Sequence record: PQ249395
Origin: Escherichia phage Pu-Krd-SF1
Length of the DNA stretch: 64,000 bases
Direction: 5' to 3' (one strand)
In this document: positions 44,081 through 44,894 of the stretch, one piece after another
Position numbering within the stretch: the first letter of the stretch is position 1
Layout: every line of letters starts with the position of its first letter
Position numbers and translations under genes: made by a program
The notes under the pieces: model-generated
Seen by the model: the letters and a program-made list of their open reading frames with translations, nothing else
The model's database searches: none
Told to the model about the DNA's origin: nothing

Positions 44081-44894
44081 ATTATTCGACCTTCTTAAAT
44101 TTGCAATTGTCAAAATGGTATCTTTTAGCGTGAGACTTATCCATGATTTTAGAGCAGTGCGGGCATTTTAATTTTTCTCTGCTATGAGATACACCCGTGA
44201 TAACTTTGCATTTATCGCCGTGGTATTTTCCATAATTTCCTACATCACATATAATTCCGCAATGCGGGCAATTTCTCTTTTCGACTTTTGCAAGACCCTT
44301 AGATAGTTTATTTAAATACTTTTCGTATTTTTGGGGGTCACTTTTAAGCTCAGACCAAAAATCTTTCATCTGTTTAGAACATCTTTCTTTATATTCTAAC
44401 ATTTCGTTTTCTGATAACGATTCCAAATATTTCACTGAAGCTTTTCGAATATTTGCATTAACTTCTTTTCTCTTTTCATCTGTCCATAAAGATTTAGTTT
44501 TTTTAATGCCTTTTCCGGCTTTTTTAATTCGTTCCTGTTTTAAATTTGGTGATAGATTCGCCCAAAACTTTTTAATGGTTTCTGATCTAATTTTAGATGT
44601 TTCCTCTTTAATCCATCCGTAATCTTTACTTACAATTCTCTGCTCTTTTGTACCCTTGGAGAATTTTATTAAGGCATAAGCCATTTCAGAATTTCGGTGT
44701 ATTTTAAAAAGAAGCTCATGTGCAAAATAGTGTTCTCTTGCTGTCAGTAAAACCTTGTTTTCTCTAGAATCATCTCCTCCCATGGATTTTGGGACAATAT
44801 GGTGTGATTCTGTATAATAATCTAATTTTTTCTTATTAAGACCTCTTTTAAGAGATCTTTCTATAAGAGAGTCGTAAATTTTAGTATAATTCAT
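44081..44894 (-). mobile_element. Homing-endonuclease (HNH) gene insertion between genes 13 and 14
   Basis: HNH ORF coupled to gene 13 stop and ending 1 nt before gene 14 ATG. Confidence 0.6.
44082..44894 (-). CDS. HNH homing endonuclease (Mob-like) with C-terminal CPHC zinc-finger-like repeats
   Basis: 270 aa; N-terminal [33 protein letters not shown]; N-terminus paralogous to ORF 23526..24218; ATGA overlap with gene 13 stop. Confidence 0.8.

Follow-up and report, generated by a model that had tools for sequence, protein, structure and literature searches.

A putative free-standing homing endonuclease gene of the Mob kind in the gene 13/14 interval of T-even phages

Layout of the gene 13/14 locus

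The sequence considered here was a 64,000-nucleotide stretch of Escherichia phage Pu-Krd-SF1 (record PQ249395), referred to below as the window. Its neck genes 13 and 14 were separated by an additional coding sequence, and the locus was composed of the following features:

44891..45820, minus strand: gene 13, head-tail adaptor, 309 aa; upstream neighbour of the endonuclease gene, whose ATG is overlapped by the gene 13 stop
44082..44894, minus strand: putative free-standing homing endonuclease gene (the 13/14 gene), 270 aa plus TAA; annotated XPN51939.1 in PQ759885.1
44090..44096, minus strand: AAGAAGG, Shine-Dalgarno-like run for gene 14 (sequence reading, putative function)
43310..44080, minus strand: gene 14, head closure protein, 256 aa; downstream neighbour of the endonuclease gene
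44891..44911, minus strand: insert-linked variant of the last six gene 13 codons plus stop, GTGGGAGTGTTAGTTGGATGA (..PPVGVLVG*), containing the endonuclease start codon

Read on the minus strand, gene 13 terminated in ...GTT GGA TGA. The endonuclease ATG (44894-44892) was made up of the A of GGA and the TG of the stop TGA (44893-44891), giving an ATGA overlap at 44894-44891. At its other extremity the coding sequence ended in AAG AAG GTC GAA TAA (stop at 44084-44082), followed by a single T (44081) and the ATG of gene 14 at 44080. This TAA-T-ATG spacing is the one found between genes 13 and 14 of T4. Since only 1 nt lies between the stop and the gene 14 ATG, the ribosome-binding site of gene 14 must fall within the endonuclease ORF, and the coding sequence did contain an AAGAAGG run (44096-44090), 9 nt ahead of the start codon of gene 14. 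The initial annotation had already described a 270-aa ORF with an ATGA overlap on gene 13, an end 1 nt before the gene 14 ATG and an internal ribosome-binding site for gene 14. The overlap and the end were borne out at the positions given above, and the AAGAAGG run, whose role is read from the sequence, agrees with the proposed site. The interval assigned to the ORF (44081-44894) needed trimming by the 1-nt spacer at 44081, and its strand (minus) had been left unstated.

The region was 100% identical to that of Escherichia phages Pu-Krd-SF5, SF6 and SF7 (PQ759885-7), and a group of Tequatrovirus genomes, T6 among them, matched it at 96-98% identity. In PQ759885.1 the three genes were labelled, in this order, 'head-tail adaptor Ad2' (gp13), 'homing endonuclease' (XPN51939.1) and 'head closure Hc2' (gp14). 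The 13/14 gene is already flagged by annotation pipelines, though previously unstudied; literature searches found no publication naming or studying it.

Signals for a separate expression of the gene were sought. No exact late promoter (TATAAATA) occurred on the coding strand from 40135 to 52228, and matches to a dedicated sigma-70-like promoter were at chance level (25 versus 22.9 expected). RNA structure at both junctions of the gene and at the T4 junction was no better than that of shuffled sequences (z = +0.57, -0.09 and -0.31), and on these grounds RNA folds masking the start codon of the endonuclease or the ribosome-binding site of gene 14 were rejected. The lack of a nearby late promoter, the chance level of sigma-70 matches and the absence of significant RNA structure suggest that the gene is a promoterless passenger, its expression being probably parasitic on the late neck operon. 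A GGGAG run, created by the insert-linked gene 13 variant, was located 10 nt upstream of the endonuclease ATG.

Two further observations concern transcription signals of the surroundings. Over the whole window the late-promoter core TATAAATA occurred 20 times, versus 10.0 +/- 2.9 expected, a count reached by 0/100 shuffles. Between wac (fibritin) and gene 13, in a gap of 32 nt, there was a terminator-like hairpin, TGGGGCCGCAAGGCCCTA then AAGGATTTTT (45833..45850, minus strand), situated directly upstream of the gene 13 ribosome-binding site.

Architecture and family of the 13/14 protein

The 13/14 protein is modular, a helical linker joining its Mob-type HNH domain to two CCHC zinc fingers of I-TevIII type:

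44718..44813, minus strand: HNH (beta-beta-alpha-metal) catalytic core, aa 28-59 (Pfam HNH_4; invariant residues; predicted structure)
44286..44624, minus strand: lysine-rich helical linker, aa 91-203 (predicted structure, pLDDT 93)
44208..44270, minus strand: zinc finger 1, CX2CX12HX3C, aa 209-229 (motif, aligning with I-TevIII finger 1; beta-hairpin plus helix in the model)
44103..44165, minus strand: zinc finger 2, aa 244-264 (motif; C244, C247, H260 and C264 invariant in 81 homologues)

The HNH motif on which the initial annotation depended was found. Pfam HNH_4 matched aa 25-52 (E=1.2e-5, 25.6 bits for a cut-off of 22 bits), and H31, H32, N46, H55 and H59 belonged to the residues invariant in an 81-sequence alignment, together with Y7, E29, G40, L62 and the four ligands of finger 2. 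H31/H32, N46 and H55 aligned with H26/H27, N39 and H48 of I-TevIII, which mutagenesis identified as needed for cleavage (PMC1865063). An AlphaFold2 model (mean pLDDT 93.2) displayed a beta-beta-alpha HNH unit (strands 29-32 and 47-50, helix 52-66, pLDDT >94), a helical region at 91-203 with predicted helices 91-112, 116-135, 139-159, 162-185 and 187-203, and two fingers, each a beta-hairpin plus helix. The N-terminal part of the linker, up to ~aa 111 (KKFW motif), was common to T4 MobB and MobD (BLASTP, MobB aa 1-210; tblastn, aa 1-111). Comparisons with the PDB gave no significant neighbour: Foldseek of the model returned nothing significant (best E=0.33, the weak top matches being HNH domains) and sequence search gave weak HNH matches only (best E=0.084).

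Two zinc-finger-like CPHC...H...C units had been noticed in the initial annotation, and they are present at aa 209-229 and 244-264, the sole two CPHC-x12-H-x3-C units in the six-frame translation of the window. The extended unit C-P-H-C-G-K-x6-M-x-R-W/Y-H-F-D-N-C-K was displayed in one to four copies by 89 of the best 120 homologues, often mixed with NUMOD3. No Pfam zinc-ribbon family reached its cut-off on this unit, NCBIfam gave no match, and the string 'HFDNC' was not found in the searchable literature.

Both the 13/14 protein and a second HNH protein of the window, encoded next to uvsW and treated below, matched phrog_655 'homing endonuclease' (E=1.8e-52 and E=3.9e-60, respectively). BLASTP and tblastn against the T4 Mob proteins assigned the N-terminal ~110 aa of the former to the Mob type: identity was 46% over 117 aa with MobD (E=7e-31), 35% over 217 aa with MobB (BLASTP, E=3e-32; 50% over 111 aa in tblastn), 42% over 111 aa with MobE (E=3e-23) and 37% with MobC (E=3e-14). 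The C-terminal 75 aa matched the T4 I-TevIII remnant (E=6e-7), and the fingers matched full-length RB3 I-TevIII with 33% identity over 78 aa (E=2e-7), while the HNH halves of the 13/14 protein and RB3 I-TevIII displayed no significant similarity.

T4 MobA-E share with the 13/14 protein an N-terminal HNH domain of the form MNYxKIY...HHI(V/I)P...N.V.LT..EH...H. Their genes are likewise free-standing, intergenic, without recognisable promoter, overlapping the upstream gene and sporadic in T-even phages; T4 seg and mob genes typically come as promoterless cassettes with overlaps of the ATGA type (PMC2988022). In MobE, as in the 13/14 insert, polymorphisms between carriers and non-carriers adjoin the insertion site. 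MobE is promoterless and nicks the nrdB gene of T2, carrier genomes being protected by nick-site polymorphisms (PMC2790892). The T4 Mob genes sit in nucleotide-metabolism or early regions, whereas the 13/14 gene lies in a late structural operon, and MobB, C, D and E lack the CX2C..H..C unit of which the 13/14 protein tail has two.

In its overall layout, an N-terminal HNH domain followed by two tandem fingers, the 13/14 protein (270 aa) is nearly the same as RB3 I-TevIII (269 aa). The finger cysteines are C211/C214 and C242/C245 in I-TevIII (CX2CX12-13HX3C) and C209/C212 and C244/C247 in the 13/14 protein. Each I-TevIII finger binds zinc and is needed for DNA binding, and the fingers are part of the C-terminal ~75 aa forming the dimer interface (PMC1865063). 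The two enzymes differ in HNH subtype and in genomic context: the I-TevIII gene resides in the group I intron of nrdB, the gene that the enzyme targets, whereas the 13/14 gene is free-standing between two protein genes. I-TevIII cuts both DNA strands as a dimer, and the break has 3' extensions of 2 nt (PMC1865063). On these grounds the 13/14 gene is assigned, as a putative member ordinary in type, to the free-standing homing endonuclease genes of the T-even Mob kind.

Related modules were also seen elsewhere. In T4 NrdB.1 (83 aa, 'hypothetical', NC_000866 139716-139967), a NUMOD3-like segment was accompanied by a single finger of the 13/14 type, CPHCGK...RWHYDKC; nrdB.1 immediately follows the gene for the short MobE (141 aa, HNH only), and the two proteins together look like a split full-length Mob protein. 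Outside the window, an ORF in PQ759887.1 (31039-31326) was I-TevIII-like, sharing 90.6% of 96 aa with the T4 remnant, so the source phage genome has a second protein with this double zinc-finger domain. A Mob-like protein of Escherichia phage vB_EcoM_ESCO10 (P0010, 214 aa, with NUMOD3) bears the NCBI name 'baseplate hub subunit and tail lysozyme', probably an annotation error.

Distribution, relationships and mobility of the insert

The 13/14 junction was inspected manually and extracted with anchors from 20 genomes. The wider survey of relatives, suggested by the initial annotation, rests on GenBank phage records, since a DNA-pattern search of IMG/VR gave just four loci. The insert was found in 45 of ~510 Tequatrovirus records (~9%), phage T6 included, while a 401-nt probe over the T4 junction matched without interruption in 458 out of 513 records. 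In T4 the gene 13 stop (94553) and the gene 14 start (94555) are separated by a 1-nt spacer without insert. Like the Mob genes, the 13/14 gene is intergenic, here in a 1-nt spacer, and is missing at this position in related phages (458/513). The insert was an 813-nt cassette, with identical borders in all carriers of the anchored extraction (eight carriers, 12 insert-free genomes).

More distant relatives were scarce. A collection of 5.8 billion sequences contained only three full-length-like proteins at 52-57% identity (P0002, P0003 and P0004). The gene of each was located directly upstream of a gp14 homologue and, where the contig extended far enough, directly downstream of a gp13 C-terminus (..PPFGILLG*, ..PPMGIIIG*, ..PPFGILIG*). 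The gp13 and gp14 homologues at the same junction of these distant phages were 69-79% identical to those considered here. Their junctions varied, one displaying an ATGA overlap and two displaying short spacers before the endonuclease ATG. The position of the three genes at gp13/gp14 junctions shows that the endonuclease lineage occupied this site across T4-like phages well beyond Tequatrovirus.

The window harbored a second member of the Mob family, a relative separate from the 13/14 element:

23526..24218, minus strand: HNH gene, 230 aa, between uvsW and uvsW.1

Its neighbours were uvsW (24215..25723) and an 80-aa uvsW.1-like ORF (23270..23512). This gene, annotated 'mobD' in Yersinia phage PST, resembles the 13/14 gene in its phrog_655 assignment, its promoterless free-standing style and its frequency, the insert being present in 47 out of 517 Tequatrovirus records, T6 included. 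The two proteins were 35% identical over 160 aa (BLASTP, E=2e-24; tblastn, 39% over 117 aa), and this similarity was confined to the N-terminal part. The uvsW-adjacent tail displayed NUMOD3 and a weak I-TevI-like DNA-binding match (Pfam), without the two CCHC fingers of the 13/14 protein. The likeness of the N-termini and the difference between the C-termini, both pointed out in the initial annotation, were accordingly reproduced by pairwise alignment.

From this pair the initial annotation had concluded that the two genes are paralogues resulting from intragenomic diversification of target specificity, that is, recent in-genome duplicates with diversified DNA-binding tails. The common N-terminal domain and the association of unlike C-terminal modules within one PHROG family are in keeping with such a duplication, but each gene was closer to genes outside the genome. 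The 13/14 copy was 46-50% identical to MobD and MobB, and 52-57% identical at full length to the metagenomic homologues from the same junction, versus 35-39% to the uvsW copy, whose nearest relatives were T4 MobE and MobD (51-57% identity). Each insert also kept its own fixed site, and the carriers of the two (~45 and ~47 records) overlapped only partially; phage G8, for instance, had the uvsW insert and an uninterrupted 13/14 junction. Homology within the Mob-like HNH family therefore stands, while the two are not each other's closest relatives and their inserts are independently distributed. Duplication within the genome is considered highly improbable, and the two genes are best read, from these sequence comparisons, as separately acquired members of one large modular family.

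Differences among full-length 13/14 alleles were limited to at most 32 nucleotides, of which 26 were synonymous (dN/dS 0.05-0.09). Among most of the carriers sampled (the main allele group) the cassette diverged by 0-0.9% and the flanks by 2.4-7.4%. The cassettes of SF5 and SHFML-26 differed at 0/805 positions, while their 500-nt flanks differed by 5.2% (gene 13) and 4.8% (gene 14); similarly, T6 and a locus from IMG/VR (L005) displayed 0/805 differences with flanks 4.6% (gene 13) and 4.2% (gene 14) apart. In several pairs, differences between carriers started 1-11 nt beyond the cassette ends. The nearest neighbour of a carrier was an insert-free genome in six of the eight cases for the gene 13 flank and in six of the eight for the gene 14 flank. 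This is what repeated transfer of the cassette into new backgrounds, with short tracts of conversion, would be expected to produce. Two allele groups could be distinguished, SF5/T6/fPS-2/SHFML-26/F1/L005 on the one hand and RPN226/sutha on the other, ~3.5-4% apart and differing mostly at synonymous positions. Comparisons between the groups were far less clear-cut, and in a few of them the divergence of the gene 14 flank did not exceed that of the cassette, T6 and RPN226 for instance displaying 3.2% in the cassette and 2.2% in the gene 14 flank. The cassette, under purifying selection and far more uniform than its flanks, has thus moved horizontally between phage backgrounds.

Possible signs of decay were encountered in some copies. 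An A7 run (44498..44504 in the window) was A6 in Shigella phage SHFML-26 and Escherichia phages F1 and FN, so that the ORF falls into two pieces, one of 154 aa with the HNH domain and one of 106 aa with the fingers. As F1 and SHFML-26 differed at seven other positions, the deletion was recurrent, was recombined, or is a homopolymer sequencing error; the A6 copies represent either early decay or such an error. Together with the many defective endonuclease genes of T4, e.g. mobA and I-TevIII, this frameshift is what could be expected of a decaying, non-functional remnant carried passively between two essential genes. A remnant is nevertheless improbable here. The window copy was full length, with all catalytic residues and zinc ligands intact, dN/dS was low over up to 32 substitutions, and the near-identity of the cassette among carriers with divergent flanks requires recent transfer. 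The 13/14 gene is real and intact and, to judge from these sequence patterns, probably still mobile and active.

Purifying selection would also fit recruitment of the HNH protein to a phage function, as a packaging factor like those of cos phages or as a weapon excluding competitors. The gene does belong to the operon of late morphogenesis, with the gene for the small terminase subunit two genes further downstream, and nuclease attack on co-infecting insert-free phages would amount to competition, as in the precedent of MobE and T2. However, ~90% of Tequatrovirus genomes, T4 included, are without the gene, although their neck and portal genes are essentially identical (gp20 clip >=99%, 496 records), so that neither assembly nor packaging can depend on it. 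The terminase-associated HNH factors of cos phages are universal beside terminase, in contrast to the 13/14 gene, which is absent from ~90% of close relatives and has genes 14 and 15 between itself and gene 16. Family and architecture are furthermore those of the Mob and I-TevIII homing enzymes, and recruitment of either type is regarded as very unlikely.

The gene 13 variant and the proposed homing cycle

Carriers differed from insert-free phages not only by the cassette but also by the adjoining end of gene 13. The insert-linked variant (44891..44911) had as its counterpart in insert-free phages TTTGGAATTTTGGTAGGTTAA (..PPFGILVG*), from which, as compared with T4, it was distinguished by seven substitutions in 21 nt and two amino-acid changes (F304V and I306V). 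The 3' end of gene 13 read TTTGGAATTTT(G/T)GT(A/G)GGTTAA in 12/12 insert-free genomes and GTGGGAGTG(T/C)TAGTTGGATGA in 8/8 carriers. Among 50,697 phage records, a 44-nt probe combining the variant and the endonuclease start detected all 45 carriers and no insert-free phage; the sole further match was a spurious 28-nt stretch in a cyanophage. The 21-nt variant is thus a candidate altered (immune) target sequence. It is its linkage to the insert that suggests this target site, and the variant could also simply be donor DNA that travelled with the cassette. MobE and other free-standing endonucleases are able to cleave away from the point at which their genes are inserted.

The best explanation, and a likely one, is that an intact Mob-type homing endonuclease gene resides in the 13/14 gap and homes into insert-free phages. 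In a mixed infection, the zinc fingers would bind the conserved DNA of the gene 13 end and gene 14 start of the insert-free phage. The HNH domain would then nick this DNA, as does T4 MobE, or a dimer would cut both strands, as does I-TevIII, and recombinational repair from the carrier genome would copy the cassette into the insert-free phage. Carrier DNA would be protected, its site being split by the insert and altered by the seven substitutions in the last six gene 13 codons. Translation of the endonuclease would be coupled to that of gene 13 through the ATGA overlap, while gene 14 would retain its T4-like TAA-T-ATG restart and gain the AAGAAGG ribosome-binding site from the cassette. Both cleavage chemistry and target site are what we infer from the precedents of MobE and I-TevIII.

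The substitutions of the variant also concern the virion. Residues 301-308 of gp13 constitute an arm inserted between the portal clip helices via hydrophobic contacts (PMC12929587), and F304V and I306V fall in this eight-residue portal-binding arm (variant residues 304-309, window 44894..44911). No compensating change of the portal was apparent, since a 122-aa clip segment of gp20 (35216..36802) was at least 99% identical in 496 phage records; a compensatory portal-clip change was rejected at this resolution. The two substitutions appear simply tolerated.

A more specific version of homing can be formulated, though it is tentative and rather less probable than not to hold in full. The 13/14 enzyme would be a natural hybrid between a Mob HNH domain, whose characterised relatives nick, and the dimerising fingers of I-TevIII; its dimer would cut both strands of the DNA encoding the gp13 portal arm, and homing would install F304V and I306V while leaving the portal uncompensated.

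Nothing known is overturned by these results, as element type, expression strategy and population behaviour follow the precedents of MobE, Seg and I-TevIII. With the 13/14 gene, which the classic phage T6 carries as well, the T-even model system gains one more uncharacterised, putative homing endonuclease of the free-standing type, and the gene offers a natural test of whether I-TevIII zinc fingers turn a Mob-type nickase into a double-strand cutter. As the insert-linked allele alters the gp13 arm docking into the portal, a selfish element would here be dragging a variant of a structural protein through the phage population.
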